Assembly: GCA_965371625.1 (NCBI GenBank)
Contig: CBDUZE010000060.1
Span: forward strand, 1-22,781
DNA: 22,781 nucleotides
Reading direction: 5' to 3'
Source of the DNA: an uncultured Alphaproteobacteria bacterium
GTDB taxonomy: Bacteria; Pseudomonadota; Alphaproteobacteria; CBDUZE01
In this document: positions 60 through 22,664 of the stretch, one piece after another
How the letters are laid out: each line of letters begins with the position of its first letter
Numbering within the stretch: the stretch's first letter is position 1
The notes under the pieces: generated by a model
Seen by the model: the letters and a program-made list of their open reading frames with translations, nothing else
Database searches by the model: none
What the model was told of the DNA's origin: nothing
Program-made: the position numbers and the translations under genes

Positions 60-145
60 GTCAGGTCTTGACTCTTATCGCATTGAGGCCACGGCGGCGC
101 GAACGCCCTGCGACTGGGAAAATGCGATAAGAGTCAAGACCTGAC
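60..145. repeat. Perfect 25-bp inverted repeat (arms 60..84 and 121..145) around a 36-nt GC-rich spacer; large hairpin overlapping the 3' end and stop codon of the minus-strand gene 134..784
   Basis: gtcaggtcttgactcttatcgcatt at 60..84 is the exact reverse complement of aatgcgataagagtcaagacctgac at 121..145. The spacer itself contains a short ggcg/cgcc stem. No U-tract follows on either strand. Confidence 0.7.
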
Positions 146-784
146 CCCTCCTGTACCCAGGGTCTTCGAGAGGAGCTCGGCGCACTTGGCGAGCGCGCTC
201 TCGATGGCCTGCTGGAAGGCCTCGTCCTCGCCCGCGCCACCGCCACCGCCACCGCCATTGCCGAGGGGGGCGCCATTGGTCTCGATGCTGAAGGCGAGGC
301 CGTCGGCCGAGCCCTCGAGCGCGCCGTCGGCCGAGCCCGCGGACGCCACCCGGGCGCGCCCGTACTGGGTCTTCGAGAGGTTGCGGTCGGCGAGGCTGAG
401 CTTGCAGCGGGCGACGACCTCGTCGCCCTCGCGGCGGCGCTCGGTGACCTCGAAGCTCCAGCCGTTGCCGAGACGCTCGTCGAGGAAGCGTTCGGTCTCG
501 GGCGAGAGCTCGCCGGAGGCCCGCGGCCGTGGCGCCGCCGCTCTCGGTCGGGCAGGGGCGGACGCGGCGGAGGCGGCGGGCGCGCGCGGCAACGGCGCCG
601 GCGGATTGGGCGGGGGTATGGGCGCGGTGAGGCCGGCCGGCTCGCGCTCGCGCGACGCTTCGGGCGGACGCTCGCGCGAGCGCCGCGGCCCGGTGCCACC
701 GGCGAGCTTCTCGAACTCCTTTCGGGTCTGCTCCAGCATCTCGTCGAAGGGCGAGGCGAAGCCGGAGCGCCGATCGCGGCCCAT
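134..784 (-). CDS. Hypothetical protein (216 aa) with a Rad52/Rad22-like motif (GNGWSFEV ... VVARCKLSL ... ALAKCAELL) and a Pro/Ala-rich linker; paralogous to the N-terminal extension of the HyuB ORF at 11695
   Basis: ATG at 784..782 is preceded by GGGGA (RBS) at 6-nt spacing, 11 bp after the stop of the upstream isochorismatase-family gene. The ORF runs to the stop at 134. The N-terminal helix FDEMLEQTRKEFEKLA and the core GWSxEV ... C.L motif align with residues about 10-130 of ORF 11695..13992. Confidence 0.55.
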   Translation of the reverse strand: MGRDRRSGFASPFDEMLEQTRKEFEKLAGGTGPRRSRERPPEASREREPAGLTAPIPPPNPPAPLPRAPAASAASAPARPRAAAPRPRASGELSPETERFLDERLGNGWSFEVTERRREGDEVVARCKLSLADRNLSKTQYGRARVASAGSADGALEGSADGLAFSIETNGAPLGNGGGGGGGAGEDEAFQQAIESALAKCAELLSKTLGTGGVRS

Positions 785-795
785 GGACGATCCCC

Positions 796-1503
796 TCAGG
801 TGCCGGTGTCGCGCTGCCACCAGCGCTGGAAGTCGTCCCGCGCCTTGGCCGCGGGATCGCCCGCGGCGGTGAGCGAGCGCAGGTAGTTGGTGGCCTCCTG
901 GCTCGACACCACGTCGCCGTACTTGGCCTCGATGTCGAAGAGGTTGGCCTGGTGCGGGCCCTCGGCGCGGTCGCCGACCGCGTCCTCGACGACGATGGTA
1001 TGGAAGCCGCACGAGATCGAGTCGATCGCCGAGGAGCGGATGCAGCCGCTGGTGGTGCACCCGGTCATGATGATGGTGTCGACGCCGCGCCCGCGCAGGT
1101 AGGCCTCGAGGTCGGTGCCGAAGAAGGCGCTGGCGTACTTCTTCTCGACCACGTACTCGCCCCTGCGGGGGCGGATGCGCTCATCGACCTCGGCCATGCG
1201 CGAGCCCTTGCGCAGGATCGCGAGCGAGGGGATCTTCTTGACCCACATGCCGGCGTCCTTCAGGTCCTCGTCGTAGGCGATGGTGGTATAGACCACGGGC
1301 AGCCCGCGCTGCCGGAACTCGAACAGGAGCTGGCCGGTGACCACCAGCTGGGTGGAGAAATCGCCCCCCAGCGGCGTCGTCGGATCGGTGAAGCCGTAGA
1401 TGAAGTCGACCACCAGGAGCACCGGCCGGGCGCCATAGCCGGCGCGCACCCCGAGGCCCTTGCGCTCATAATCGTCGCGGGTCGCTTGCTGCCAATCGTC
1501 CAT
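796..1503 (-). CDS. Isochorismatase-family (cysteine) hydrolase, 235 aa; the family includes N-carbamoylsarcosine amidase, RutB and nicotinamidase
   Basis: Translation has VLLVVDFIYGFTDP ... VVYTTIAYDEDL ... DTIIMTGCTTSGCIRSSAIDSISCGFHTIVVEDAV, including the catalytic Cys in the TGCTTSGC context typical of the isochorismatase fold. Start ATG is at 1503..1501 (MDDWQQ...). Confidence 0.75.
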   Translation of the reverse strand: MDDWQQATRDDYERKGLGVRAGYGARPVLLVVDFIYGFTDPTTPLGGDFSTQLVVTGQLLFEFRQRGLPVVYTTIAYDEDLKDAGMWVKKIPSLAILRKGSRMAEVDERIRPRRGEYVVEKKYASAFFGTDLEAYLRGRGVDTIIMTGCTTSGCIRSSAIDSISCGFHTIVVEDAVGDRAEGPHQANLFDIEAKYGDVVSSQEATNYLRSLTAAGDPAAKARDDFQRWWQRDTGT

Positions 1504-1763
1504 TGCCCGCCTCCGGGACGGGGCCTTGCGCGGCCCCGGAAAGGGCCCCCGCGGGGGCTGCCGGAAAGCTTCGATAACACTTGCCCGCGCCGGATTCAAC
1601 GGCCATGCCGGGGCGCGGCGCAGCGCGCCATCCCGCTTGATCGCCACCCGAGGGGAGGCTATGAAAATACCAACGAATAAGGGCGGGCCACTGTCCATCG
1701 TTGACGGTCCCGCGTCGGGCCGGGGGTGTCCCGCCTGTGCCGCCGATTGCAAGAGGAGGTCCC

Positions 1764-2846
1764 GTGAGCGATGACTCGAACGCCTATCCACCGCCAACGC
1801 CGCGCCGATCGGGCCCTGGTGCCGGGGACGGCGGGTCGATGACCGGCCCCGCCTACCGGCCCCGGCCGCTGCTCCCCACGTCGTCCGTCGGCCTCTCGCC
1901 GGGATTGCGGCGCGGCCCCAGGGCCGGTGTCGGGGGGCGCAAGGACATCCTCTGCGCCTTCGGCATCGACATCGACGCGGTGGCCGGCTGGCTCGGCTCC
2001 TACGGCGGCGAGGACTCGCCCTGCGACATCTCGCGCGGCATGTTCTCGGGCGAGGTCGGCACCCCGCGCCTGGTCAAGCTGTTCGACCGCTTCGGCATCA
2101 AGACCACCTGGTTCATCCCCGGCCACTCCATCGAGACCTTTCCCGAGCAGTGCAAGCTGGTGGTCGACGCCGGCCACGAGATCGGCATGCACGGCTACTC
2201 CCACGAGAACCCCATCGCCATGACGCCGGAGCAGGAAGAGGCGGTGATGGACAAGTGCATCGACCTCATCGAACGGCTCTGCGGTCGCCGCCCCGCCGGC
2301 TACGTCGCCCCGTGGTGGGAGTTCAGCCCGATCACCAACGAGCTGCTGCTGAGGAAGGGCATCAAGTACGACCACAGCCTGATGAACGACGACTTCCACC
2401 CCTTCTACGTGCGCGTCGGCGACAGCTGGACGCCGATCGACTACTCCAAGTCCGCGGACGAGTGGATGAAACCCCTGATACGCGGCCGGGAGACCGACCT
2501 TATCGACATCCCGGGGAGCTGGTACCTCGACGACCTGCCGCCGATGATGTTCATCAAGAGCGCCCCCAACAGCTTCGGCTTCATCAATCCCCACGACATC
2601 GAGGAGCTGTGGCGCGACCAGTTCGACTGGGTCTACCGCGAGTACGACTACGCGGTCTTCACCATGACCATCCACCCCGACGTCTCGGGCCGGCCCCAGG
2701 TCTTGCTGATGCTGGAGCGCATCTTCGAGCACATCAGCGGACACGCCGGCGTGCGCTTCCTAACCTTCGACGAGATCGCCGACGACTTCCGCGAACGTTT
2801 CCCGCGCGACAAGGTCAAGGCGGGAGAGACCAGCGCCGCCGGCTGA
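1764..2846 (+). CDS. Polysaccharide deacetylase / PuuE-allantoinase-like family hydrolase
   Basis: [17 protein letters not shown] ... [15 protein letters not shown] ... [13 protein letters not shown] matches the NodB/PuuE deacetylase fold (HGYxHE). Start is assigned to GTG 1764, preceded by AGGAGG at 1754..1759. The in-frame ATG 1839 is an alternative start. The N-terminal region is low complexity. Confidence 0.7.
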
Positions 2847-2875: not shown

Positions 2876-3205
2876 ATGTGCAGCCTGTGCGGGGTGCTCG
2901 GCGGACGCGCCCACTGGAGCGACCGCGCCGGCGCCGCGGATGGCGGCGAGCGCAGCCGCGAGGTCACCCGGCAGCGCGAGCGCCAGTGGCGCACCCGCCT
3001 CGCCAACCAGATCCTCGCGCACTACGGCCTCGCGCTTGCGGACTGGGCCGCGACCTCCTACGTGCTGCGCGGCCGCACCGGGCGCACCGCGCTGGTGGAG
3101 AACCTGAGCGAGCTGTGGCCCGCCGCCGAGGCCCTGGGAAAAAGGCCCTGCGACCCCCTCGACGAGGCCCTGCTCGCCGCCCTCGCGGGGCGCGGTGCCA
3201 AGTGA
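2876..3205 (+). CDS. Small hypothetical protein (109 aa, begins MCSLCGVLGG), immediately upstream of the COG0523 GTPase
   Basis: ATG 2876 follows GGAG at 4-nt spacing, 30 bp after the deacetylase stop. The stop at 3205 lies 13 bp before the COG0523 ATG. I recognise no domain, and high GC makes spurious ORFs common here. Confidence 0.35.
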   Translation: MCSLCGVLGGRAHWSDRAGAADGGERSREVTRQRERQWRTRLANQILAHYGLALADWAATSYVLRGRTGRTALVENLSELWPAAEALGKRPCDPLDEALLAALAGRGAK

Positions 3206-3218
3206 TCCGCCCGCCGCC

Positions 3219-4268
<1,050 letters not shown>

Positions 4269-4484
4269 AACGCGCACTCAGGAAACTCTGATGTTGACTT
4301 GTGCAACCAATGTCCGTCATCAGACGCAAAGCGGATTCTTTGGCCGAGATTGGTTTATATCTGCAATCGAGCCAACTCGGGCCGTGATGATCCATAATCG
4401 CCTTGTGAGGGTGGTACAAAAACCCTAATGATGTTAATGCCACCACTGACCTGAAATTTGATAATATATCACTCGTAGATCGGC

Positions 4485-6050
4485 ATGGGAGAGTTCGCTA
4501 AAATGGGTTTTTCGTCTGAAATTAGAGAGAATGCCCTCGTTAAAGCTGCACGGTGCTGCTGTGTATGTAGACGATTTAGGGGCGTTGGGGTAGAGGTACA
4601 TCACATTGTTCCGGCCTTGGATGGTGGCTCAAGCGATCTTGATAACGCGATTGTCTTGTGTTTCGACTGCCATTGTGCCGCAGGACATTATAATCCCAAA
4701 CACCCAAGAGGGACTAAATATAGCCCCAGAGAACTCCGTAGGCATAGAGATAACTGGTACAGATCCGTTGAAGAAGCAGGCGCTCAGCTGCGCGAGGACG
4801 ATGAATTTTCCGGTTATTACGGGCGGCATTTGATTTGTCTGGACAATGAAGCTGCACGCGATCTTATAGCGGCTAACAAGGACCAAATACCGTTTCGGTA
4901 CGATTACCTCTTAAAGAACGACGTCTTTCGGTTCATGGCCGAGGTTTTAGACGACAATTTGCCTTTTTCTTGGACAGGTTCCGATAATCAACTCGGCCAT
5001 TATAGGGGCAGAGGAGACTACAGTTCCCTGGAAGATTTCCACGATCAACACCCCGAGTTTGAGAAGCAATTCAGCCGTCCACTTACCGCAACAGACATTG
5101 TGGAAGGTGGGCTGGTTCCTTCCAAGATGATGCGTAAGATAGTAGATAACGGATTCCCTCCTTCTGAATTGGGGAAAGTATGCGCGGAAGTGGATGATTG
5201 TGGTGGAGGTGTATCGTATTTTGTTGCGATGCGGCGGCCGCTGTTTGTATTTGCAGAAATAAGGAACACCTCCTCGGAACAGTTTAGATTATCGGGATTA
5301 GTTACTCGAAAGGATAAAGACAGACCCTTTGTTTGTAAATTTGATGACTGGGATGAAGGCAAACTCGCTGCAATCCCATACGGGAATTTGGTATTAAATC
5401 CCGGAGAAGTCCTTCTCATTCCAGAATGTGTTCTGTTGAGCTCTCAAAACCACGACCCGTTAAATACCGAATTCGTGGAAATGGAGGACATGAGTCATGA
5501 ACAAATGCAAGCCGTCGGCTTCCGTACAACCGCCATGAAAGACGACTTCTATCGGTTTGGACCAGCGCTTAAGCTGGAAGGCTTCGATCTCGAAGTTGGC
5601 AACGAGATAAGGAACGTACCCATCCACAGGTTCGATCCTTCGAAATGCTATGTATACTACCGAGCATGGATGTGCGGAAGCTGTCCCCACTTGTACGTTT
5701 TCGACAAACATACCGGATGGAAATATCTGGGCGAGATCCTAGCGAAATCCACTAACAATGGATCGAGAACTGAGAGAGTGTCGATTCCTGAGGGCGTAAC
5801 AAGAATACGTATTGTTGAGACGGACTTCGAAATAACCCATATCGAAAGTATTGACTATAGGGATCAGCAACTAGTCGAGAGGCCCATCCGTTTGCGGCAA
5901 GGTGATTCCCTTGAACTGGAAGTTAATGGTCCAGGCATCCTTTCCGTGATTGGAAGATACCATGCACGAATCATGAGCCCTCGTTGTTACCTTCAATTAC
6001 GCCAGAAACTAAGTTTGCGGAGCGCTTATGAGCACACCGTTCTAGGATAA
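4485..6050 (+). CDS. HNH-nuclease-motif protein (521 aa) with a large C-terminal region I cannot assign
   Basis: N-terminal CCCVCRRF-x8-VHHIVP-x10-DNAIVLCFDCHCAAGH fits the C-x2-C ... HH ... N ... C-x2-C-H HNH signature. A second in-frame ATG at 4503, with GGAGAG upstream, is an alternative start. A -10-like gataat/taatat lies at 4460..4467. Confidence 0.75.
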   Translation: MGEFAKMGFSSEIRENALVKAARCCCVCRRFRGVGVEVHHIVPALDGGSSDLDNAIVLCFDCHCAAGHYNPKHPRGTKYSPRELRRHRDNWYRSVEEAGAQLREDDEFSGYYGRHLICLDNEAARDLIAANKDQIPFRYDYLLKNDVFRFMAEVLDDNLPFSWTGSDNQLGHYRGRGDYSSLEDFHDQHPEFEKQFSRPLTATDIVEGGLVPSKMMRKIVDNGFPPSELGKVCAEVDDCGGGVSYFVAMRRPLFVFAEIRNTSSEQFRLSGLVTRKDKDRPFVCKFDDWDEGKLAAIPYGNLVLNPGEVLLIPECVLLSSQNHDPLNTEFVEMEDMSHEQMQAVGFRTTAMKDDFYRFGPALKLEGFDLEVGNEIRNVPIHRFDPSKCYVYYRAWMCGSCPHLYVFDKHTGWKYLGEILAKSTNNGSRTERVSIPEGVTRIRIVETDFEITHIESIDYRDQQLVERPIRLRQGDSLELEVNGPGILSVIGRYHARIMSPRCYLQLRQKLSLRSAYEHTVLG

Positions 6051-6098
6051 TCCAACCAGGAGAAAGATGAAATAGCAAAGCAGTATTGGGTGATCTGA

Positions 6099-7148
6099 AT
6101 GAGTAACTTCGCGCTCTGCTCCAATTGCTTCCAGGATCAAGGGCTCAAACTTGATGCTCAACAGTTCGGTCTCGTTGAGAGCTCGACTTGTCCAAACTGT
6201 GGTTCGGAAACCGGGCAAAAGTTGAGCTCGGACTTGATCGGGCATCTTGCTCATAGGTATTTCGTTCGAGGAAGCCTTCATCGTTGTGACTACGGCGCTG
6301 CACCAATAATCCAATTTAATGACCGTCAACAGACGAGTATAGATACTTCCCCGTGGTTCGAGTCGGATGTGCGCCTTATCGAAAAGACACTTGGCGTTGG
6401 CTTCTTCTATTATGCACCAAGAATGTGGATGGTTGGCGAAATTGAACCACTAAAAGCATTGATAGAGCCGGAAACCAGGGCCTCAATGATACGCCGTACC
6501 TTAGCAGAATACCCGATCATAACACTGAAAACTGAGCAGGTATTTTACCGCATTCGGAAATCTCCAGCGGATCCGACTGATTTTAGCGAATATGATAGTC
6601 TACCGATTGTTAGGGCAGGCGCCGGTCGACTTGATTCTAAGGGATTTTCTGTAATGTATTGTTCTCAGGATCTGCAAGTTTGTATCCATGAGTGCCGCCT
6701 CACCGCAGAAGACGAACTTTTTCTAGCGACGCTCGCAGCAACGAGAGACCTGCGGCTGCTTGACTTAACTGAGGTGCTTGAGGAAGAGGGTGTAACTGAG
6801 TTCGAGAGCCTTGATATTGCCATTCACATGCTGTTTCTCGCTGGCGATTACTCTTACAACATCACGCGAGAAATTGCCATGGCTGCGCATACAGCAGGAT
6901 ATGATGGACTTGTCTATCCGTCGTACTTCAGTCTTCTACGTACTGGGGGAATACCATTTGAGACGTCGTATCGAATTTCACACCGAATAGTCCCCCGACT
7001 GGCGGAGAGAGAAGGATCAAAGATCATTCCAAATCTCGCTCTATTTGGACGACCGATAGAACAAAATATTGTCAAAGTACGATGCATCAACAAGGTAATC
7101 ATCAATAAAGTTGAATATGGCATCCATTTCGGACCAGTGGGGTACTAG
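6099..7148 (+). CDS. Zinc-ribbon plus RES-domain protein (349 aa); putative NAD+-targeting toxin-type effector
   Basis: N-terminal CSNC-x20-CPNC (Cys4 ribbon). The central region YRIRK ... GRLDSKGFSVMYCSQDLQVCIHE ... YDGLVYPS matches the order and spacing of the Arg/Glu/Ser RES signature. RBS GGTGA sits 5 nt before ATG 6099, 48 bp after the HNH gene stop. Confidence 0.7.
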   Translation: MSNFALCSNCFQDQGLKLDAQQFGLVESSTCPNCGSETGQKLSSDLIGHLAHRYFVRGSLHRCDYGAAPIIQFNDRQQTSIDTSPWFESDVRLIEKTLGVGFFYYAPRMWMVGEIEPLKALIEPETRASMIRRTLAEYPIITLKTEQVFYRIRKSPADPTDFSEYDSLPIVRAGAGRLDSKGFSVMYCSQDLQVCIHECRLTAEDELFLATLAATRDLRLLDLTEVLEEEGVTEFESLDIAIHMLFLAGDYSYNITREIAMAAHTAGYDGLVYPSYFSLLRTGGIPFETSYRISHRIVPRLAEREGSKIIPNLALFGRPIEQNIVKVRCINKVIINKVEYGIHFGPVGY

Positions 7149-7361
7149 CCAACAACTGTACTCTTCGTTTCAGTGAGCAACATTCCGATGCGGCTAGACT
7201 CAACCGTTTCACAAAAGCGCGAAAGTCCCTTCCTTGTTAGGAGCCGTGAATCGAAGGACTACTCGTGTAGGCCCCTTACCGCATGGAAGCGGACATCGGT
7301 GAGGCGTTTTCCAGAGCCGTCGACAAGGCGGTTAGCGGGTGCACGCCCTAGCCCCCGCCCC

Positions 7362-8701: not shown

Positions 8702-8768
8702 GATCACGAACGAAAATGGTCGGGCCAAACCCTGGATGCGACGTCAACGCTCGTGACGGGTGCAGGCC

Positions 8769-9293
8769 CTAATCCGAGCTGCCCGCCGACGACCTGGGCG
8801 GCGGCCGCCTGGGCTGCCAGCCCACCCGGAACGAGCGCACCACGTGGTGCAGCAGGTAGAACAGGATGGCCAGGATCACCAGCACGATGATGGCGAGCAG
8901 CTTGGCGCCGAACACCGGGCCGATGATGGCGCCGCGGTTGATGAGGTGCTCGCCCAGCATCGCCACCGCCTGCAGGGTGGCGCCGGCGGCGAAGATCACG
9001 GCGATCAGGATCGCCACCTGAAGGGTATCGAAGACCAGGCCCTCGGCGTCGAGCTCGCCCGAGCCGCGGAAGATGTTGCGGCGGAAGGACTGCCAATGGG
9101 CGATGGCGTAGCCGATCACGCCGACCAGCGAGGCGAACCAGAAGATCACGTTCGAGAAATGGACCCGGGGGATGCTCGCGCTGACGAAGCTCTCGAAGGG
9201 CTGGTAGAAGTAGAGAAAGATCAGCAGGATGACGACGCCCACCAGGACGATCCAGAATCGCGGTCGCTGCCAGCTTGCCGTGTCTTGCGCCAT
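8769..9293 (-). CDS. Small integral membrane protein (~174 aa, about 4 predicted TM helices); function unknown
   Basis: Hydrophobic stretches FWIVLVGVVILLIFLYF, VIFWFASLVGVIGYAIA, VAILIAVIFAAGATL and LLAIIVLVILAILFYLL. Start assigned to ATG 9293 (MAQDTASW...). The longer upstream ORF extension is Pro/Arg-rich and implausible. Confidence 0.55.
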   Translation of the reverse strand: MAQDTASWQRPRFWIVLVGVVILLIFLYFYQPFESFVSASIPRVHFSNVIFWFASLVGVIGYAIAHWQSFRRNIFRGSGELDAEGLVFDTLQVAILIAVIFAAGATLQAVAMLGEHLINRGAIIGPVFGAKLLAIIVLVILAILFYLLHHVVRSFRVGWQPRRPPPRSSAGSSD

Positions 9294-9442
9294 TGCCTGC
9301 CCGGCCCCTGCGTAATCCGAGGCCCCGGATCGTATACCAAGCCCCGGCAAAAGCAAAAGCGGACGGCGCGCCTGGTCCCCGGCGCCGCGCTCGGGCGCGC
9401 CTGGACCGGGCGTTCGGCGCTTGGCGCCGCGCCCGGAGCGAG

Positions 9443-9471
9443 TTGACCGGACCTTAGGTCTCGGGGATGAT
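9443..9471 (+). promoter_or_regulatory. Candidate sigma70-type promoter for hyuA (-35 TTGACC 9443..9448, 17-nt spacer, -10 GATGAT 9466..9471)
   Basis: Hexamer spacing read directly from the sequence. The -10 is weak. Confidence 0.25.
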
Positions 9472-9624
9472 GGGGCGGCCGGTGTGTGCGCCCGGGTCAC
9501 GGCATGACCCAGGCAGGCTGGCGATCGCATGATTTCTTACCCCGCGTCCGCCGTTGGCGGCGGCGCACCGGTGCCGCGCCCGAGCGCGGCCGGGCGCGGA
9601 AATGGGAGGCTTGAGCAAGGCACC

Positions 9625-11691
9625 ATGGGCGGCCGCCTGGGGATCGATGTCGGTGGCACCTTCACCGACCTGCTGCTGTTCGACGACGCCACCCGTCGTC
9701 TCCACCTGCTGAAGACGCCGTCGACGCCCGAGGACCAGTCGGTCGGCATCCTCGTCGGCATCGAGAAGCTCTTGGCCGAGAGCGGCATCGCGGCCTCGGA
9801 GATCGAGGCCATCCTCCATGGCACCACGGTCTCGACCAACATCGTGCTCGAGGAGAAGGGCGCCAAGGTCGGCCTCCTGGTGACCGAGAACTTCGAGCAG
9901 GTTCTCCACCTCGCGCGCTCGCAGACGCCGGGGCCGCTGGCGGGCTGGATCACCATGATCAAGCCCGACCCGCTGGCCGACCTCGAGCTGACGCGGGGCT
10001 TAGCCGAACGCGTCAACGCCCGCGGCGAGATCGTCACGCCGCTCGACGAGGGCCGCGCCCGGGCCGCGATCCAGGAGCTGGTGGCGGCGGGCGTCGAGTC
10101 GATCACCGTCTCGCTCCTCCACGCCTACGCCAACCCCGCCCACGAGCAGCGCGTCAAGGCCATCATCGAGGACTTGGGCGTCGAGCTGCCGGTCTCGCTG
10201 TCATCCGAGATCCTGCCCGAGTTCCGCGAGTACGAGCGCACGCTGGTTGCGGTGATGAACGCCTACATAGGCCCCAGCATGCGCCGTTACCTGAGCAACT
10301 TCGAGGACAAGCTGCGCGCCATCCAGTTCTCGCCCCACGTCAGCATCGTCCGCTCCGACGGCGGTCTGATGAGCGTCGAGCGGGCTTCCGCGTCGCCGGT
10401 CCACACTATGGTCTCGGGCCCCGCCGGCGGGGTCTCGGGCGCCGCCTTCGTGGCCGCGCTGGCCGGCCACACCGAGGCGCTGGGCTTCGACATGGGCGGC
10501 ACCTCGACCGACGTCTCGATGATCCGCGAGGGCAAGCCGACGATCTCGCGCCAGACCACGCTCGGCTACTACCCGGTCAAGGTGCCTTCCGTTGAGCTCC
10601 ACAGCGTCGGCGCCGGCGGCGGCTCGATCGCCCACGTGCCGATGACCGGGGCGCTGCGCGTCGGGCCCGAGAGCGCCGGCGCGGTGCCCGGGCCGGCGTG
10701 TTACGACCGCGGCGGCGACCGCCCCACGGTGACCGACGCCAACGTCGTCCTGGGCCGCCTGCCGCCCAGCCTGCTCGGCGGCGAGATGGCCTTGAACGTC
10801 AAGGCGGCGGAGGAGGCGGTGGCCAAGATCGGACGCGCCCTCGGCCTCGACACCTACCAGGCCGCGCAGGGCATCCTCGATATCGTGAATGAGAACATGT
10901 TCGGGGCCTTGCGCCTGGTGACGGTGCAGAAGGGCTTCGATCCCCGCGACTTCGCCCTCGTCGCCTTCGGCGGCGCCGGGCCCATGCACGCCAACGCCAT
11001 CGCCATGCTGGCGGGCTGCTATCCGGTGATCGTGCCGCCGACGCCGGGCGTGCTCTCGGCCCTCGGCTTTCTCCATTCCGACGTCAAGAACGAGTTCGCG
11101 CGCACCTTCATCCGCAACCTCGACAGCGTCCAGCCCGGCGAGGTGATCGAGATCCTGACGCGGCTGGGCAGCGAGGCCAAATCCTGGCTTGGCGAAGAGG
11201 GCATCGAGAGCGGGCGCCAGCAGCTCCACTACGAGGCCGACGTGCGTTACTTCCGCCAGGGCTACGAGTTCGCCCTCGAGGTCACGCCCGAGGCCTTGAG
11301 CAACGGCGGGATGGGCGACCTCGAGGACCGCTTCGGCGTCATCCACGAGCGCCTCTACGGCTTCAGGCTGGAGGCCCCGGTGGAGCTGGTGAACCTGCGC
11401 GCCGTCGGCATCGGTCAGGTGGTGAAGGTCGAGTTCCCCAAGTTCGAGCTCGACGGCGCGGATGCCTCGGGCGCGGTGGTCGAGCAGCACCGGGTCTACT
11501 TCGACGGCAACTTCGCTCCCGTCAACATTTACGACCGCGAGCGCCTCGCCGCGGGCAACCGGATCTTAGGTCCGGCGGTGATCACGCAGAAGGACTCGAC
11601 GACCGTGATCCATCCCGGCCACGTCGGCGACGTCGACCCCTACCTCAACATCCTGATCCACCCGGAGGGCACGCCCCCCGGGGCACGGTGA
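9625..11691 (+). CDS. hyuA: Hydantoinase/oxoprolinase A subunit (N-methylhydantoinase A / 5-oxoprolinase family)
   Basis: Begins MGGRLGIDVGGTFTDLLLFD (the Hydantoinase_A N-terminal signature), with homology across the whole ORF. ATG at 9625. Confidence 0.9.
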   Translation: MGGRLGIDVGGTFTDLLLFDDATRRLHLLKTPSTPEDQSVGILVGIEKLLAESGIAASEIEAILHGTTVSTNIVLEEKGAKVGLLVTENFEQVLHLARSQTPGPLAGWITMIKPDPLADLELTRGLAERVNARGEIVTPLDEGRARAAIQELVAAGVESITVSLLHAYANPAHEQRVKAIIEDLGVELPVSLSSEILPEFREYERTLVAVMNAYIGPSMRRYLSNFEDKLRAIQFSPHVSIVRSDGGLMSVERASASPVHTMVSGPAGGVSGAAFVAALAGHTEALGFDMGGTSTDVSMIREGKPTISRQTTLGYYPVKVPSVELHSVGAGGGSIAHVPMTGALRVGPESAGAVPGPACYDRGGDRPTVTDANVVLGRLPPSLLGGEMALNVKAAEEAVAKIGRALGLDTYQAAQGILDIVNENMFGALRLVTVQKGFDPRDFALVAFGGAGPMHANAIAMLAGCYPVIVPPTPGVLSALGFLHSDVKNEFARTFIRNLDSVQPGEVIEILTRLGSEAKSWLGEEGIESGRQQLHYEADVRYFRQGYEFALEVTPEALSNGGMGDLEDRFGVIHERLYGFRLEAPVELVNLRAVGIGQVVKVEFPKFELDGADASGAVVEQHRVYFDGNFAPVNIYDRERLAAGNRILGPAVITQKDSTTVIHPGHVGDVDPYLNILIHPEGTPPGAR

Positions 11692-11694
11692 ACC

Positions 11695-13992
11695 ATGTCC
11701 GAGCTCAACCCGCGCCGCAAATCGGCCTCCCTCGACGACCTCTTGAAGGCCAACAAGGCCCAGTTCGACAAGATCCTCAGGCGCCAGATGACCGAGATCG
11801 GCCTGCGCCGCGCCGATCGCCTGCCGGCCACGGCGGAAGACCTGGCCTCGGCCAGCCAGCGGGCCGAGGCCGAGGCGGGCGACCTCACGGCGCTGCTGAA
11901 CCAGCGCTTCGGCGGCGGCTGGTCGACCGAAGTGGTCGAGCACAAGGTCGAGCGCGGCCGCGTCACCGTGCTCTGCAGGCTCACGGCGAACGGCGCGTCG
12001 AACATGCAGTTCGGCTCGGCGCGCATCAACGGCGACGAGGGCGGGGCGCTGCAGCGCGCCACCGACGAGGCGCTGATGAAGTGCGCGGCGCTCTTCGGGC
12101 GCGGCGACGAGGCGCCCTCCGAAGCCTCCGAAACCGAAGCGCCACGGCCGCGGGCGGCGGCCGAGCCGGCCCCGGCCCCGGCGCCCCGCTCCCAGCCCGC
12201 GCCGGAGACCGCCCGGGGCCTCGACACCATCACCTTCGACCTGATCGAGAACGCGCTGCGCAACGCCCGCCACGAGATGGACGCGGTGCTGTTCCGCTCG
12301 GCGATGTCGCCGGTGATCCGCGAGCAGCACGACGAGTTCCCCATGATCACCGACGCCAAGGGCCGCATGATCGTCGGGCAGTTCGGCTCCTACGTGGCCG
12401 AGATGCTGCGCCACGAGAACTTCACCCTCCACCCCGGCGACGTCATCCTGCAGAGCGATCCCTACAAGTGCGGCGGGGCGATCAGCCACATCAACGACTG
12501 GATGGTGCTGGTGCCGATCTTCTTCGAGGACGAGGTGATCGGCTTCAGCTCGATGTTCGGCCACATGATGGACGTCGGCGGGCCGGTGCCGGGCAGCATG
12601 CCCACCGCCGCCACCTCGGTGTTCGGCGAGGGCCTCAAGATCCCGCCGATCAAGATCTACGAGCAGGGCGAGATCAACAAGTCGGCGGTCGACCTGATCA
12701 TGAACAACACCCGCACGCCGGAGATGAACTACTCGGACCTGATGGCCATCATCGCCGGCAGCCGGGCCGGCGAGAAGCGGGTGATCGAGATCTGCCAACG
12801 CTTCGGCAAGGAGGTCTACAAGCGGGCCTGCGAGGCGCTGCTGGAGCGCACCAACCGCGCCATGCGCCAGCTCATCGTGCAGAACCTGCCCGAGGAGCCG
12901 CAGTCGTTCGAGGACTACGTCGACGACGACGGCCTCGGCAACGGCCCCTTCAAGATGAAGCTCACGGTCTGGCGCGAGGGCGAGCACGCCTTCTTCGACT
13001 GGACCGGGACCGCGGCCCAGGCCCCGGGGCCGATCAACTTCTATCTCCACGAGGGCATGTTCAAGATGTTCATCGGGGTCTACATGATCATGGTCTTCGA
13101 CCCCCAGATCCTCTTCAACGACGGCTTCTACGACCTCATCCACGTCACCCTGCCCAAGGGCTCGCTGGTGCACCCGAACTTTCCGGCGCCGCTGGGCTGC
13201 CGCACCCACGCGTTGAGCCGCCAGTTCGACGTGCTCGGGGGGGCGCTGAGCAAGAACGCGCCCGAGATGGCCACCGCCGCGGGCTACGGGTCGAGCCCCC
13301 ACTTCCTTTACTCAGGGGTCGATCGCGAGGGGCGCTCGTTCCAGTTGATGGAGATCCTCTACGGCGGCATTCCCGGCCGCCCGGTCGGCGACGGCATGGA
13401 CGGTCACTCGTGGTGGCCGCTGTTCGAGAACATCCCCTGCGAGTACCTGGAAAGCTATTACCCGATGATGATCGAGAGCTACGCCACCATCGCCGACAGC
13501 GGCGGCGCCGGCCTGCACCGCGGCGGCAACGGCGTCGAGAAGATCTATCTGCTGCTCGAGGACGGCGAGATCTCGATCCACGACGACCGCCATCTCACCC
13601 AGCCCTGGGGCATCCTCGGCGGCAAGCCGGGGGCCTGCTCGGAGAAGTGGCTGGTGAAGAAGGAGGGCGCCCGCGAGGCGCTGCCCTCGAAGGTCGACAA
13701 CGTCAAGGTGCGGAACGGCGACCGCATCGTCTTCCGCACCGCCGGTGGCGGCGGCTGGGGCGACCCGATGGAGCGCGAGCCCATGAAGGTGCGCGACGAC
13801 GTGGCGCGCAAGCTGCTCTCGGCCGGGGCCGCCCGCGACGGCTACGGGGTCGTGCTCACGGGCGAGGGCGGCGAGGTCGACGCCCGCGCCACCCAGGACC
13901 TGCGCGAGAGCGTGACGCGCGGCCGCAAGCCCCTTCCGGTGTTCGATTTCGGCGCCCTGCCGGGGGTGGGCGCGGCGCAACCGGAGGGTTGA
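11695..13992 (+). CDS. hyuB: Hydantoinase/oxoprolinase B subunit carrying an in-frame ~175-aa N-terminal extension with a Rad52-like motif, a paralog of the 134..784 protein
   Basis: From about 12225 onward: ITFDLIENALRNARHEMDAVLFRSAMSPVIREQHDEFPMITDAKG ... DPYKCGGAISHINDW ... SMFGHMMDVGG (Hydantoinase_B). The N-terminal 175 aa (LNQRFGGGWSTEVVEH ... VLCRLTANG ... ALMKCAALFG) is unrelated to HyuB. ATG 11695 lies 4 nt after the hyuA stop. Confidence 0.85.
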   Translation: MSELNPRRKSASLDDLLKANKAQFDKILRRQMTEIGLRRADRLPATAEDLASASQRAEAEAGDLTALLNQRFGGGWSTEVVEHKVERGRVTVLCRLTANGASNMQFGSARINGDEGGALQRATDEALMKCAALFGRGDEAPSEASETEAPRPRAAAEPAPAPAPRSQPAPETARGLDTITFDLIENALRNARHEMDAVLFRSAMSPVIREQHDEFPMITDAKGRMIVGQFGSYVAEMLRHENFTLHPGDVILQSDPYKCGGAISHINDWMVLVPIFFEDEVIGFSSMFGHMMDVGGPVPGSMPTAATSVFGEGLKIPPIKIYEQGEINKSAVDLIMNNTRTPEMNYSDLMAIIAGSRAGEKRVIEICQRFGKEVYKRACEALLERTNRAMRQLIVQNLPEEPQSFEDYVDDDGLGNGPFKMKLTVWREGEHAFFDWTGTAAQAPGPINFYLHEGMFKMFIGVYMIMVFDPQILFNDGFYDLIHVTLPKGSLVHPNFPAPLGCRTHALSRQFDVLGGALSKNAPEMATAAGYGSSPHFLYSGVDREGRSFQLMEILYGGIPGRPVGDGMDGHSWWPLFENIPCEYLESYYPMMIESYATIADSGGAGLHRGGNGVEKIYLLLEDGEISIHDDRHLTQPWGILGGKPGACSEKWLVKKEGAREALPSKVDNVKVRNGDRIVFRTAGGGGWGDPMEREPMKVRDDVARKLLSAGAARDGYGVVLTGEGGEVDARATQDLRESVTRGRKPLPVFDFGALPGVGAAQPEG

Positions 13993-14077: not shown

Positions 14078-16633
14078 ATGTTGGAATTTGGCATAACGCT
14101 GCTGATCTCGGCGATCGTCGTCATCGCCATCGTCTACATCATCTCGATCTGGATCTACAAAAGGGCGCCCGCCAACATGGGCTTCATCCGCACCGGCTTC
14201 GGCGGCACCAAGGTGTGTCTGGGGCGGGGCGCCATCGTGCTGCCGGTCTTTCACGAGGTCTCCTGGATCTCGCTCGAGACCATCAAGCTGATCGTCAGCC
14301 GCTCGCGCGAGCAGGCCATCCTGACCTCGGACAACATCCGTGTCGACGTGGTGGCCGAGCTCTACGCCCACGTCGGCCACACCGAGGACGACCTGCTGAC
14401 CGCGAGCCGCAGCCTGGGCGAGAAGACCTTCGACGCCGACAAGGTGCGCAACTTGCTAGAGGCCAAGGTGGTGAGCACGCTGCGCTCCTACGCCGCGACC
14501 AAGACCTTGAATGAGCTCCACGAGAACCGGGACACCTTCGCCAAGGACATCAAGGCCAGCGTCGTCGAGAGCTTCCAAGCCAACGGCCTGGCCCTCGAGG
14601 AGGTCACGATCGTCACCCTCGAGCAGACCTCGAAGGAGCACTTCAACCGCGACAACGTGTTCGACGCCGAGGGCCTCAGGATCATCACCGAGATCACCTC
14701 GAAGGCGCGCCGCGAGGTCCACGACACCGAGAAGCGGACCATCGTGTCGTTGCGCCAGAAGGACCTGGATACCCAGCTCGAGCTGCTCGAGATCGAGCGC
14801 CAGGAAGCTTTCGCGCGGGCCGGCCAGGACAAGGACATCTCCAACGAGGAGGCGCTGCAGGTGGGGCGCAAGCAGATCTTCGTGCTCGATCAGCAGAAGG
14901 CGGTGGAGGAGAAGGAGATCGAGAACGAGCTCGAGTTGGAGCGCAGGCGCACCGAGCGCGAGATCTCGATCACCGAGGAGGGACAGCACCGCGAGGCCTC
15001 GGAGATCCGCAAGGCGCTCGCCTTGGAGCAGGAACGCCGCGACAAGGAGATCGCCATCATCGCCAAGGCCAAGGAGGAGGAGCTGGCCGAGATCGCCCGC
15101 GGCCTGGCCCGCGAGGGCGCCGAGAAGGAGCGCGACGTCGAGCTCGCGCACAAGGAGCGGGAACGCCAGCAAGCCGACATCGATCGCGTCACCGCGGTCG
15201 CGGGCCACGAGGAGACGGCCAAGGACAAGCGCCATCAGGCCGAGATCGAGAGCGACCTTTCGATGCGCAGGCGCAACCTCGAGAACCGGCTCGCGGTGCT
15301 CGATATCGAAAAGGAGGAAGCGCTGGCCACGGCCCGCCAAGAGCACGACGTCTCCAACGAAAAAGCCCGCGTGCTCAGCGAGAAGCAACGCTACATCCTG
15401 CAGCAGCGCTGGGAGGTCGAGCAGGAGGAGATCGACAAGGACCAGGCCTTCGAGAAGGCGCAGATCAACAAGGAGGCCTCGGTGATCGACGAGGGCAAGA
15501 CCCGCGAGGCGGCCGAGATTCGCCGCGCCCTCGCCCGCGAGCTCGAGGAGCGGGAGCGCGAGATCGCCCTCATCGCCAAGGAACAGGAGCGCGAGAAGGC
15601 CGATATCCGCCGCTTCCTGGCGCGCGAGACCGAGGAGCGCGACCGCGAGATCGCGCTCGCCGACAAGACCCGTCAGCTCGAGGAGGCGGAGGTCAAGCGC
15701 CTCAAGTCGAGCGCCGAGCGGGAGCAGGTCGAGCACGAGGTCGAATCCGTGCGCATCGTCGCCGACGCCCGGCGCGACAAGGACATCGACCGCATCGAGG
15801 CCGAGAAGCTCGCCGAGAGCCGGCGCATCGAAGAGGAGAACAAGGCCCAGATCAACCGCATGCACATGGTCACCCAGTCCGAGGCCCGCAAGCTCTCGGC
15901 CGAGCGCGAGGCCGATGCCACCCTGATCAGGGCCAAGGCCACCAGCGAGGCCCAGGAGATCACGGCCGTAGGCATCGAGCGCGAGGCCGGCGCCAAGGGC
16001 CGGGCCGAGATGGAGATCGAGGGCCTGCGCGTCGAGAACACCCAGCGCATGCTCGAGGCCGAGGCCACAGGCATCGAGGCCAAGGCGACGGCGCTCAAGA
16101 ATTACGACGAGGTCGCCACCTTCCTCGAGCTCGCCAAGCTCCACATCGAGGCCGAGCGCGACATCCACATCGACCAGGCCAAGGCCATGGGCAACGCGCT
16201 GCAGCACGCCCAGATCCGCATGTACGGCGGCGAGGGCGGCACCGTCGACACCATCCGCGGCATGTTCACCACCGGCTTCGGCCTCGGTGAGGTGCTCGAG
16301 GGCGTGGCCCACTCGCTGCCCGACGGCTTGCGCGAGCGCTTCGCCGAGAACGGCCTCAGGGGCATCTTCGGCCGCCCCTACCGCTCCAGCGCCTTCCACG
16401 ACTCGGTCGAGCTGCTGGACGGGCTGGTGCGCGAGGCGATGGGCAGCGCCAAGGAGCGCGACGTGCCCTTCGCCCAGGCGGTCGCCCTCATGGAGGAGAA
16501 GGCCGGCGACGACGAGGCCCGGGTCAAGGCGGTCGAGCTCTTGAAGGAGATCAACGAGCACGGCGTCTTCGACGACGTCGCCTTCGAGAAGGTGTGGGCG
16601 CTCCTGCAGGCCACCGCCAAGTCCTCCGGGTAA
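14078..16633 (+). CDS. yqiK: Flotillin/YqiK-family SPFH (band-7) membrane protein, 851 aa, with an internally duplicated coiled-coil region
   Basis: N-terminal TM helix, then GFIRTGFGGTKVCLGRGAIVLPVFHE ... TIKLIVSRS ... IRVDVV and TSKEHFNRDNVFDAEGL, nearly identical to motifs of E. coli YqiK. Two divergent tandem ~100-aa coiled-coil units (LEIERQEAFARAGQDKDISNEEAL ... and LDIEKEEALATARQEHDVSNEKAR ...). Confidence 0.9.
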   Translation: MLEFGITLLISAIVVIAIVYIISIWIYKRAPANMGFIRTGFGGTKVCLGRGAIVLPVFHEVSWISLETIKLIVSRSREQAILTSDNIRVDVVAELYAHVGHTEDDLLTASRSLGEKTFDADKVRNLLEAKVVSTLRSYAATKTLNELHENRDTFAKDIKASVVESFQANGLALEEVTIVTLEQTSKEHFNRDNVFDAEGLRIITEITSKARREVHDTEKRTIVSLRQKDLDTQLELLEIERQEAFARAGQDKDISNEEALQVGRKQIFVLDQQKAVEEKEIENELELERRRTEREISITEEGQHREASEIRKALALEQERRDKEIAIIAKAKEEELAEIARGLAREGAEKERDVELAHKERERQQADIDRVTAVAGHEETAKDKRHQAEIESDLSMRRRNLENRLAVLDIEKEEALATARQEHDVSNEKARVLSEKQRYILQQRWEVEQEEIDKDQAFEKAQINKEASVIDEGKTREAAEIRRALARELEEREREIALIAKEQEREKADIRRFLARETEERDREIALADKTRQLEEAEVKRLKSSAEREQVEHEVESVRIVADARRDKDIDRIEAEKLAESRRIEEENKAQINRMHMVTQSEARKLSAEREADATLIRAKATSEAQEITAVGIEREAGAKGRAEMEIEGLRVENTQRMLEAEATGIEAKATALKNYDEVATFLELAKLHIEAERDIHIDQAKAMGNALQHAQIRMYGGEGGTVDTIRGMFTTGFGLGEVLEGVAHSLPDGLRERFAENGLRGIFGRPYRSSAFHDSVELLDGLVREAMGSAKERDVPFAQAVALMEEKAGDDEARVKAVELLKEINEHGVFDDVAFEKVWALLQATAKSSG

Positions 16634-16650
16634 GCGCGGCGGGAGGCGCC

Positions 16651-17733
<1,083 letters not shown>

Positions 17734-21194: not shown

Positions 21195-22664
21195 ATGAGC
21201 GTCCTGATCAAGAACGGCCGCGTGGTGACGGCCTCGGACGACTATCACGCCGACATCTACATCAACGATTCGACCGTCACCGTGATCGGCAAGAACCTGG
21301 TGATCGACGCCGAGCGCGTGATCGACGCCGCCGGCAAGCTGGTGATCCCGGGCGGGGTCGACCCCCACACCCACCTCGAGCTTCCCTTCGGCGGCACCAC
21401 GACCTCGGACACCTTCGAGACCGGGACCCGCGCCGCCGCCTTCGGCGGCACCACCTGCATCGTCGACTTCGCGGTCCAGACCAAGGGCACCTCGACGCTG
21501 GAGGCGCTCGACGCCTGGCACCAGAAGGCCGGGGGCAAGACCGCCATCGACTACGGCTTCCACATGATCATCACCGACATGCCGGACCACCGCTTGCCTG
21601 AGATGCGCCGTCTCGCCGACGAGGGCATCACCTCCTACAAGCTCTTCATGTCCTACCCGGGGGCCATGCTGTCCGACGACGGCACCATCTTCCGCACCAT
21701 GCGCAAGGCGGGCGAGGACGGCACCGTGGTGTGCATGCACGCCGAGAACGGCATCGTCATCGACGAGCTCATCAAGATCGCCCTGGCGCAAGGCCTCATC
21801 GAGCCCAAGCAGCATGCCCTGACCCGGCCCACCCGTCTCGAGGCCGAGGGCACCCACCGGGCGCTGGCCATCGCCGAGGTGGCGCGCTCGCCGGTCTACA
21901 TCGTTCACCTGAGCGCCTACGACGCACTCAAGGAGCTGCGCGACGCCCAGGCGCGCGGGGTGATGGCCCACGGCGAGACCTGCCCCCAATACCTGCTGCT
22001 CGACGTCGGCGCCTACGACGCGCCCGGCTTCGAGGGCGCCAAGTACGTGCTCACCCCGCCCTTGCGCGAGAAGTGGAACCAGGACGAGCTGTGGCGCGCC
22101 TTGCGGGGCGGCGTGCTCAACGTCATCTCCACCGACCACTGTCCGTTCTGCCTCAAGGAGCAGAAGGAGCTCGGCAAGGACGACTTCTCCAAGATCCCCA
22201 ACGGCGGGCCCGGGATCGAGAACCGCATGAGCCTCATTTACCACCATGGCGTGGGCGGCGGACACCTCACGCTCAATCGCTTCGTCGAGCTCACCTCGAC
22301 CGCGCCGGCCAAGATCTTCGGGCTCTTTCCGAGGAAGGGGACGATCGCGGTGGGCAGCGACGCCGACATCGTGATCTTCGATCCCGACCGCGAGGAGACC
22401 ATCAGCGTCCGCAACCCCAAGACCCACCACATGAACATCGACTACTCGGCCTACGAGGGCTTCCGCGTGCGGGGCTACACCGAGACCGTGCTGAGCCGGG
22501 GCAAGGTGGTGATCGACAAGGGCGAGTACGTGGGCCGCGCGGGCGACGGGATGTTCATCAAGCGCAGCCCCTATGGCGGCATCCACGCCACCGGCGGCGC
22601 GAGGGCCGCGCCCGCCGCCACGCCGGCGCCGGCCCAGTCCACGATCTCGGCGGCGGCGGAGTGA
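21195..22664 (+). CDS. D-hydantoinase / dihydropyrimidinase (cyclic amidohydrolase family)
   Basis: LVIPGGVDPHTHLELPFGGT (metal-binding HxH), KLFMSYPG with the carboxylated-Lys context, CMHAENG, and HGETCPQYLLLD ... STDHCPF. GGGAGGG RBS before ATG 21195. Confidence 0.9.
   Translation: MSVLIKNGRVVTASDDYHADIYINDSTVTVIGKNLVIDAERVIDAAGKLVIPGGVDPHTHLELPFGGTTTSDTFETGTRAAAFGGTTCIVDFAVQTKGTSTLEALDAWHQKAGGKTAIDYGFHMIITDMPDHRLPEMRRLADEGITSYKLFMSYPGAMLSDDGTIFRTMRKAGEDGTVVCMHAENGIVIDELIKIALAQGLIEPKQHALTRPTRLEAEGTHRALAIAEVARSPVYIVHLSAYDALKELRDAQARGVMAHGETCPQYLLLDVGAYDAPGFEGAKYVLTPPLREKWNQDELWRALRGGVLNVISTDHCPFCLKEQKELGKDDFSKIPNGGPGIENRMSLIYHHGVGGGHLTLNRFVELTSTAPAKIFGLFPRKGTIAVGSDADIVIFDPDREETISVRNPKTHHMNIDYSAYEGFRVRGYTETVLSRGKVVIDKGEYVGRAGDGMFIKRSPYGGIHATGGARAAPAATPAPAQSTISAAAE

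Follow-up and report, generated by a model that had tools for sequence, protein, structure and literature searches.

The sequence analysed here (the window) is the complete 22,781-bp contig CBDUZE010000060.1, with a GC (guanine plus cytosine) content of ~68-73%. It encodes two paralogous copies of one unnamed domain family which, by core homology, is a member of the Rad52 superfamily; one copy is a standalone protein encoded next to an amidase gene, and the other forms the N-terminus of a hydantoinase B subunit (HyuB). The initial annotation had placed two such segments at 134-784 and at the N-terminus of the open reading frame (ORF) 11695-13992, which is where both were found. Their features are given below, with residues in amino acids (aa) and model confidence as predicted local distance difference test score (pLDDT).

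134..784, minus strand: standalone Rad52-like protein of the 'long type', 216 aa, with the ATG at 784 and the stop codon at 134-136
701..760, minus strand: conserved N-terminal amphipathic helix motif of the standalone protein, aa 9-28, SPFDEMLEQTRKEFEKL, as delimited by alignment; helix predicted for aa 12-28
509..700, minus strand: Pro/Ala/Arg-rich linker of the standalone protein, aa 29-92, predicted to be disordered (pLDDT <50)
170..508, minus strand: Rad52-like core of the standalone protein, aa 93-205, comprising a helix, three strands and a long helix with an invariant ALxxC motif
230..346, minus strand: insertion limited to the standalone type in the alignments, aa 147-185, with a GSADGxAF beta-hairpin and a poly-Gly loop
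11695..13992, plus strand: fusion protein, 765 aa, in the order N-terminal motif, Rad52-like core, Pro/Ala linker and HyuB
11725..11796, plus strand: N-terminal helix motif of the fused protein, aa 11-34, SLDDLLKANKAQFDKIL...; helix predicted for aa 13-34
11875..12105, plus strand: Rad52-like core of the fused protein, 'short type', without the insertion, aa 61-137
12106..12222, plus strand: Pro/Ala/Glu-rich flexible linker of the fused protein, aa 138-176, between the core and the Pfam HyuB match

In the standalone protein, the N-terminal helix motif is followed by the Pro/Ala linker and then by the Rad52-like core with its insertion. Pro/Ala linkers had initially been described behind both cores; this holds for the fused copy, whereas in the standalone copy the linker (aa 29-92) precedes the core, and its length differs among homologues, the alignment being gapped and variable there. 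A further correction concerns the insertion of ~38 aa in the standalone core, which has no counterpart in the fused copy. In the AlphaFold2 model, its strands are predicted at residues 156-160 and 163-167; the poly-Gly run is peculiar to this genome. For the fusion gene, public gene calls likewise give a product of 765 aa. Its N-terminal 176 residues are without Pfam assignment, with Hydantoinase_B covering aa 177-691, and the N-terminal ~55 aa are highly conserved within the fused type. The pLDDT of the fused linker is below 50 for aa 138-154 and averages 57-58 for aa 161-175.

Composition-adjusted BLASTP of the standalone against the fused segment gave an E-value of 2e-9, with 41 identities in 139 columns, of which 46 were gapped (~44% of the aligned residues), and core identity in a MAFFT alignment was 36%. 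A profile built from other standalone-type sequences supported the paralogy of the two segments with an E-value of 4e-10. Both copies have the helix motif S-x-F/L-D-x-L/M-L-x-x-x-K/R-x-x-F in common, and a hidden Markov model (HMM) of the standalone-type N-terminus matched 63 of 64 fused N-termini with a median of 19.3 bits, compared with a maximum of 13.6 bits for shuffled sequences. The match is beyond chance, falls outside the Pro/Ala linkers and does not arise from low-complexity composition; the similarity originally noticed in the N-terminal helix and the core was borne out. The two segments are paralogous copies of one domain family.

On direct scan, neither window copy matched any Pfam, NCBIfam or PADLOC model, and Pfam PF04098 (Rad52_Rad22; gathering score 20.3 bits) was not matched by either of them even at E <= 1. 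When 49 family cores were scanned singly, Rad52_Rad22 was the only recurrent family (12/49 at E <= 1, best E 1.6e-5), and the fused relative P0092 reached 19.5 bits, just short of the cut-off. Word-indexed searching recovered no more than 14 and 2 relatives. When 1.84 billion representatives were searched exhaustively with a profile, 445 proteins were obtained at E <= 1e-3, 139 of them at E <= 1e-10, mostly standalone proteins of 140-200 aa together with a set of HyuB fusions. From the same library, the family profile recovered P0162 (E 5.5e-9) and P0164 (E 9.0e-9), which score above the PF04098 cut-off (26.8 and 32.1 bits, respectively) and resemble typical phage-type annealing proteins.

In searches of the Protein Data Bank (PDB) sequences, neither window copy matched any entry on its own, and the family profile did not reach Rad52 either, so that the link required these phage-type intermediates. 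Comparison by hhalign of a family alignment free of Rad52-positive sequences (A4) with an alignment of four phage-type proteins (A5) gave a probability of 99.1% and an E-value of 7e-19 over 83 columns, and the A5 profile matched both yeast Rad52 (E 3.9e-5) and human RAD52 (E 1.7e-4). AlphaFold2 models of the two copies, calculated without templates, revealed the order helix, strand, strand, strand, long helix with a core pLDDT of 90-95, conforming with the beta-beta-beta-alpha core fold of the Rad52 superfamily. Rad52 and Mgm101 were the best fold matches for both models, and the top 14 Foldseek matches were all RAD52. The Rad52 resemblance of the core, for which profile-profile and Foldseek comparison had been named as the check, was thereby confirmed, and both the profiles and the predicted structures argue that the homology to Rad52 is real and not a mere resemblance. 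We conclude that the family descends from phage/bacterial Rad52-type single-strand annealing proteins.

With the phage-type Rad52_Rad22 proteins (PF04098; P0164, P0160 and relatives in Polaribacter and Bacillus phages) the family shares a homologous core of the same predicted fold, made up of the LNxxFG helix, the WxFE(V/I) strand, the REGD hairpin, the VLxKLT strand, the QFGxA strand and the AxxxALKKCA helix. The phage-type RGGxxFxYVEVGYV beta-hairpin and the C-terminal GIAxDxY segment are both missing, whereas an N-terminal helix and a linker are new. Homology starts at the helix after the N-terminal beta-hairpin (residue 65 of P0164); the hairpin of the single-stranded DNA (ssDNA) groove, corresponding to the human R55/Y65 region, is absent, and its place is taken by the disordered linker or by a different helix. 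The eukaryotic Rad52/Mgm101 ring domains (PDB 5jrb, 8g3g and 9yi6) gave no direct profile-to-sequence match, and their ssDNA-groove elements are lacking in the family.

The conserved basic residues on the long helix (human K152/R153/R156; the phage Lys-Lys pair before the Cys) are likewise not maintained. At the pair of positions before the invariant Cys, which we take to correspond to human K152/R153, the first is Ala in 68 of 114 standalone-type sequences and the second is Lys or Arg in only 65 of 114; in the fused type, Arg occupies the first position in 22 of 30 sequences and the second is variable. The core net charge averages ~-1 compared with a range from 0 to +5 among four phage-type relatives, of which three lie at +2 to +5; this difference is modest. 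The standalone core of the window has a net charge of -5. The invariant Cys was considered as a catalytic or carrier residue and rejected in this role, as phage-type Rad52 carries the same ALKKCAS motif; it is inherited and, therefore, not a new functional residue. While phage-type Rad52 is encoded in recombination modules, the present family occurs in a catabolic operon or fused to HyuB, and all gene contexts were of catabolic or transport genes, with no association with recombination or phage replication genes.

The family has kept the helix and the beta-beta-beta-alpha core, lost the hairpin and gained an amphipathic N-terminal helix on a flexible linker. As the features for ssDNA binding are either absent or not maintained, the evidence does not support a working recombination protein, and the domain is a member of the Rad52 superfamily that fails the features defining a working annealing protein. 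Of the two alternatives offered by the initial annotation, each was half right: the domain is derived from Rad52, without support for a role in recombination, and it behaves like an accessory domain or subunit of the enzyme cluster but does not merely resemble Rad52.

A metagenome scan with the fused-type core revealed 66 loci, which were then compared with the window proteins by tblastn. The counts below give the loci with a feature over those of sufficient length to judge it.

Uninterrupted in-frame fusion: 60/61
HyuA directly upstream of the fusion: 46/46
Small hydrophobic protein with four probable transmembrane segments, divergent: 37/37
Flotillin-like SPFH gene downstream of the fusion: 39/39
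ATP-binding cassette (ABC) ATPase after the SPFH gene: 29/29
Upstream region of 8 kb: deacetylase-like gene, 24/25; CobW, 22/25; isochorismatase, 21/25; second Rad52-like copy, 20/25

Every placeable standalone homologue lies directly downstream of a gene for an isochorismatase-family protein of ~237 aa, usually adjoined by a divergent polysaccharide-deacetylase-like gene and CobW. The loci recovered via the standalone copy (L003, L011, L012 and L015) carry the same supercluster when long enough, which implies that both paralogues belong to one system. Across ~80 loci, co-occurrence with hyuAB and isochorismatase genes was almost invariant, so that the association is not the coincidence which the initial annotation had left room for. 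In the first operon, the isochorismatase-family amidase gene is followed by the standalone copy, with the deacetylase-like hydrolase and CobW genes divergent from it; the small hydrophobic protein comes next, and then an operon encoding HyuA, the Rad52-like-HyuB fusion, the flotillin-like SPFH protein and the ABC ATPase. The amidase stop codon is separated from the standalone gene by 11 nt and the HyuA stop codon from the fusion gene by 3 nt, a spacing that suggests translational coupling. Dozens of loci from soil and marine sources retain both the gene order and the in-frame fusion, and the named relatives come from genomes of uncultured Alphaproteobacteria, Rhodospirillaceae and SAR324. Both Rad52-like copies are fixed parts of one conserved catabolic supercluster, which presumably degrades compounds of the hydantoin or creatinine type.

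The supercluster exists in several versions. In many other loci, a second, unfused HyuA gene follows the standalone Rad52-like gene on the same strand (L033, L035, L042-L047, L051-L054, L059-L063, L070 and L073, at their upstream ends), and it is absent from the marine-looking ones. The order there is isochorismatase, Rad52-like, HyuA2 and HyuB2, with HyuB2 seen where the locus was long enough (L043, L053); the window ends too early to reveal the presence of such a pair. In L045, a 2OG-Fe(II) oxygenase and a carbon-nitrogen hydrolase are encoded at 14801-16838 after the ABC ATPase, suggesting further nitrogen-compound processing in some cluster versions. Two apparent variants, P0016, seemingly a standalone short-type protein, and P0100, seemingly an isochorismatase-domain fusion, were dismissed as assembly artefacts from low-coverage or error-prone contigs with split genes; P0016 runs into the HyuB N-terminus before a frameshift. 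Frameshifts in such contigs (L001, L015 and L079) split the fused gene and others, giving rise to the false P0016 and P0100 in public protein sets.

The enzymes encoded next to the two copies are the following.

796..1503, minus strand: isochorismatase-family amidase (Pfam), 235 aa, its stop codon 11 nt upstream of the standalone gene
799..864, minus strand: C-terminal tail of the amidase, AAGDPAAKARDDFQRWWQRDTGT, reaching beyond the solved homologue
9529..11691, plus strand: HyuA, hydantoinase/oxoprolinase A subunit, with 3 nt between its stop codon and the fused gene
12223..13992, plus strand: catalytic part of HyuB (Pfam PF02538, 496.8 bits; aa 177-691 on model positions 1-519)

The PF02538 match of the fused gene is full-length and above the gathering score. 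Among solved structures, the closest relative of the HyuB part is N-methylhydantoinase (PDB 7hk5, E 7.2e-72) and that of the amidase is N-carbamoylsarcosine amidohydrolase (PDB 26st, E 1.1e-72; 1nba, E 1.1e-41), both enzymes thus having their nearest solved sequence relative at E ~1e-72. N-methylhydantoinase and N-carbamoylsarcosine amidase catalyse consecutive steps of creatinine breakdown via N-methylhydantoin. In L003-L006, a creatinase gene comes after the standalone copy, and in the window a dihydropyrimidinase above the NCBIfam cut-off is encoded at 21195-22664. In contrast to the cluster enzymes, the solved N-methylhydantoinase (7hk5) is a direct HyuA-HyuB fusion, in which HyuB starts from residue 705 and no space is left for a Rad52-like domain, and the solved amidase (26st, 1nba) ends before the DDFxRWW tail. 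In the literature searched, no Rad52-like partner is described for either N-methylhydantoinase or N-carbamoylsarcosine amidase.

The conserved amidase tail, AAKAQDDFxRWW, extends ~20 residues past the end of the solved homologue. It was found in 26 of 27 distinct loci with a downstream Rad52-like gene and is absent in L075/L076, which represent the only lineage without that gene. This distribution is suggestive of a candidate docking peptide.

Tentatively, and with a chance that we put just below even, the Rad52-like domain is a DNA-independent assembly or tethering module that links consecutive enzymes of the pathway. No longer engaged with DNA, it would serve protein-protein contacts. On the model of Rad52 proteins that form rings, the cores may assemble with one another, and such oligomers possibly contain both paralogues. 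HyuB would be suspended from the Rad52-like hub by the Pro/Ala linker, and the standalone copy would bring in the amidase, perhaps via the DDFxRWW tail of that enzyme. In this manner, one complex, possibly on a flotillin platform at the membrane, could hold both the ATP-dependent enzyme that opens the ring and the amidase of the next step. Flexible Pro/Ala linkers flanking a small folded domain are typical of tethered modules, such as the lipoyl and peripheral-subunit-binding domains of the E2 component of 2-oxoacid dehydrogenases or the encapsulation peptides of microcompartments. The Rad52-like family likewise presents a small domain or amphipathic helix on a flexible Pro/Ala-rich linker; it differs from those systems in having no sequence or fold kinship with them and no shell or E2-core genes in the hydantoinase cluster. 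Targeting to a microcompartment or encapsulin was considered and rejected, as no shell protein was present among the conserved genes recovered.

Several points weigh against a tethering role. The AlphaFold2 models are of monomers, which cannot show oligomerisation or a binding partner, and the part of Rad52 that is missing contributes ring contacts in solved structures, so that the capacity to form rings may be gone too. The closely related L075 and L076 represent a single independent loss, for which reason the co-occurrence of tail and gene is suggestive only. The placement of the enzymes in the creatinine/N-methylhydantoin pathway is drawn solely from the best matches among solved structures, and it stays provisional because NCBIfam places HyuAB nearest to caprolactamase, below the cut-off, with no equivalog model passing. 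A more elaborate form of the tethering reading appears unlikely to us: the paralogues would co-assemble as a ring-like hub and, together with the SPFH and the small hydrophobic protein, form a membrane-anchored metabolon beside the ABC importer, where the product of the ATP-dependent (N-methyl)hydantoinase would be passed directly to the amidase. In that event, a ring fold of DNA repair would have been turned into a scaffold for metabolic enzymes.

Equally unlikely, though deserving of consideration, is an adaptor to a membrane platform, where the N-terminal helix and/or the core would dock on the SPFH protein or the small hydrophobic protein and bring the enzymes beside the ABC importer; the cores need not bind each other in that case. 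It agrees with the co-conservation with the fusion of SPFH (39/39), hydrophobic protein (37/37) and ABC ATPase (29/29), with the hydrophobic N-terminus and long E/R/K/A-rich region of the SPFH protein, and with the high conservation of the N-terminal ~55 aa of the fused type. The standalone copy, however, sits in a different operon beside the amidase, and the known SPFH partners NfeD and FtsH are, from general knowledge, unrelated to the Rad52-like domain.

We rate it as improbable that binding of ssDNA or RNA has been retained, for instance in autoregulation of the cluster mRNA or in tethering of the enzymes. Homology to ssDNA-annealing proteins, a topology common to the dsRBD and HPF folds, and a basic RRREGDE hairpin, which is conserved and placed where Rad52 has its outer-site loop (presumably equivalent to K102), would fit such a function. 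Against it, the family lacks the N-terminal hairpin and does not maintain the pair equivalent to K152/R153, the net charge of the cores is close to neutral or acidic (-5 for the standalone core of the window), and the conserved neighbours include no genes for recombination or nucleic-acid functions. A regulatory or activating subunit, that is, a small ligand-sensing or chaperone-like domain tuning HyuAB and the amidase, is a distinctly doubtful proposition: no ligand-binding motif was identified in the domain, the fold matches behind this idea score below Rad52, and the invariant Cys is inherited from phage-type Rad52 (ALKKCAS). That a working recombination protein or prophage remnant lies beside metabolic genes by chance, as the Rad52 homology and a low-GC island with an HNH nuclease gene in the window might suggest, is effectively refuted, since the in-frame fusion and gene order are kept in dozens of soil and marine loci and the island is absent from related loci and adjoins neither copy.

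Literature searches on Rad52 together with hydantoinase, isochorismatase or oxoprolinase, on flotillin with hydantoinase, on N-methylhydantoinase with N-carbamoylsarcosine and on the single-strand annealing protein (SSAP) superfamily returned no paper tying the domain to these enzymes. In the named gene records examined, the standalone protein is a 'hypothetical protein' and the fusion is annotated simply as hydantoinase B; with no Pfam or NCBIfam model for it, the domain is currently invisible to annotation. The only roles known to us for Rad52-superfamily proteins are the annealing and the protection of DNA, and there is a real chance that the function of this domain is new for the fold. A truncated Rad52 has become a fixed, duplicated part of a widespread soil and marine catabolic cluster, with one copy fused to an enzyme and the other encoded just after the gene of the next enzyme in the probable pathway. 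If it acts independently of DNA, it would clearly exemplify how a recombination fold can be turned to the assembly of enzymes, and it would give access to the way in which ATP-dependent hydantoinase pathways are organised in bacteria, possibly on flotillin platforms. If, instead, nucleic acid is still bound, an unexpected link between nitrogen-compound catabolism and nucleic acids would emerge.

The remaining conserved genes of the cluster are located in the window as follows.

1701..2846, plus strand: polysaccharide-deacetylase/PuuE-like metallo-amidohydrolase, divergent from the amidase operon (PDB 3qbu, E 5.8e-152); the true start is probably downstream of 1701
3195..4268, plus strand: CobW-family metallochaperone GTPase (22/25 loci)
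8769..9293, minus strand: conserved hydrophobic protein of ~174 aa, probably a membrane protein, of no known family, divergent from hyuA
14078..16633, plus strand: flotillin-like SPFH/Band-7 protein, 851 aa, hydrophobic at the N-terminus and with a very long stretch rich in E/R/K/A
16651..17733, plus strand: soluble ABC-transporter ATPase, last gene of the hyuA operon (listed ORF start 16594)

The deacetylase-like protein shows a striking similarity to HP0310 of Helicobacter pylori (PDB 3qbu/4ly4; 509.6 bits). Its pairing with CobW in nearly all loci is a hint that it may be a metal-dependent amidohydrolase of small molecules and not an enzyme of polysaccharides. The ORF 8760-9446 on the plus strand was discarded as a shadow of the hydrophobic-protein gene on the opposite strand. 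The hydrophobic N-terminus of the SPFH protein is a probable membrane anchor, and its E/R/K/A-rich region is probably the cause of an AT skew of 0.46 at 15-16 kb. No published link between flotillin and hydantoinase was found in the literature searched.

In the window, the cluster is interrupted by a low-GC island and an alcohol dehydrogenase gene. The island, at ~4290-7250 between CobW and the alcohol dehydrogenase gene, has sharp edges and a GC content of 43-51% compared with ~70% around it. It carries no tRNA (transfer RNA) gene and gave marginal PADLOC matches only; its genes encode an HNH-nuclease protein of 521 aa (4485-6050) and a RES-domain protein of 349 aa (6099-7148). Its absence from syntenic loci implies that it is probably a recent horizontal insertion.

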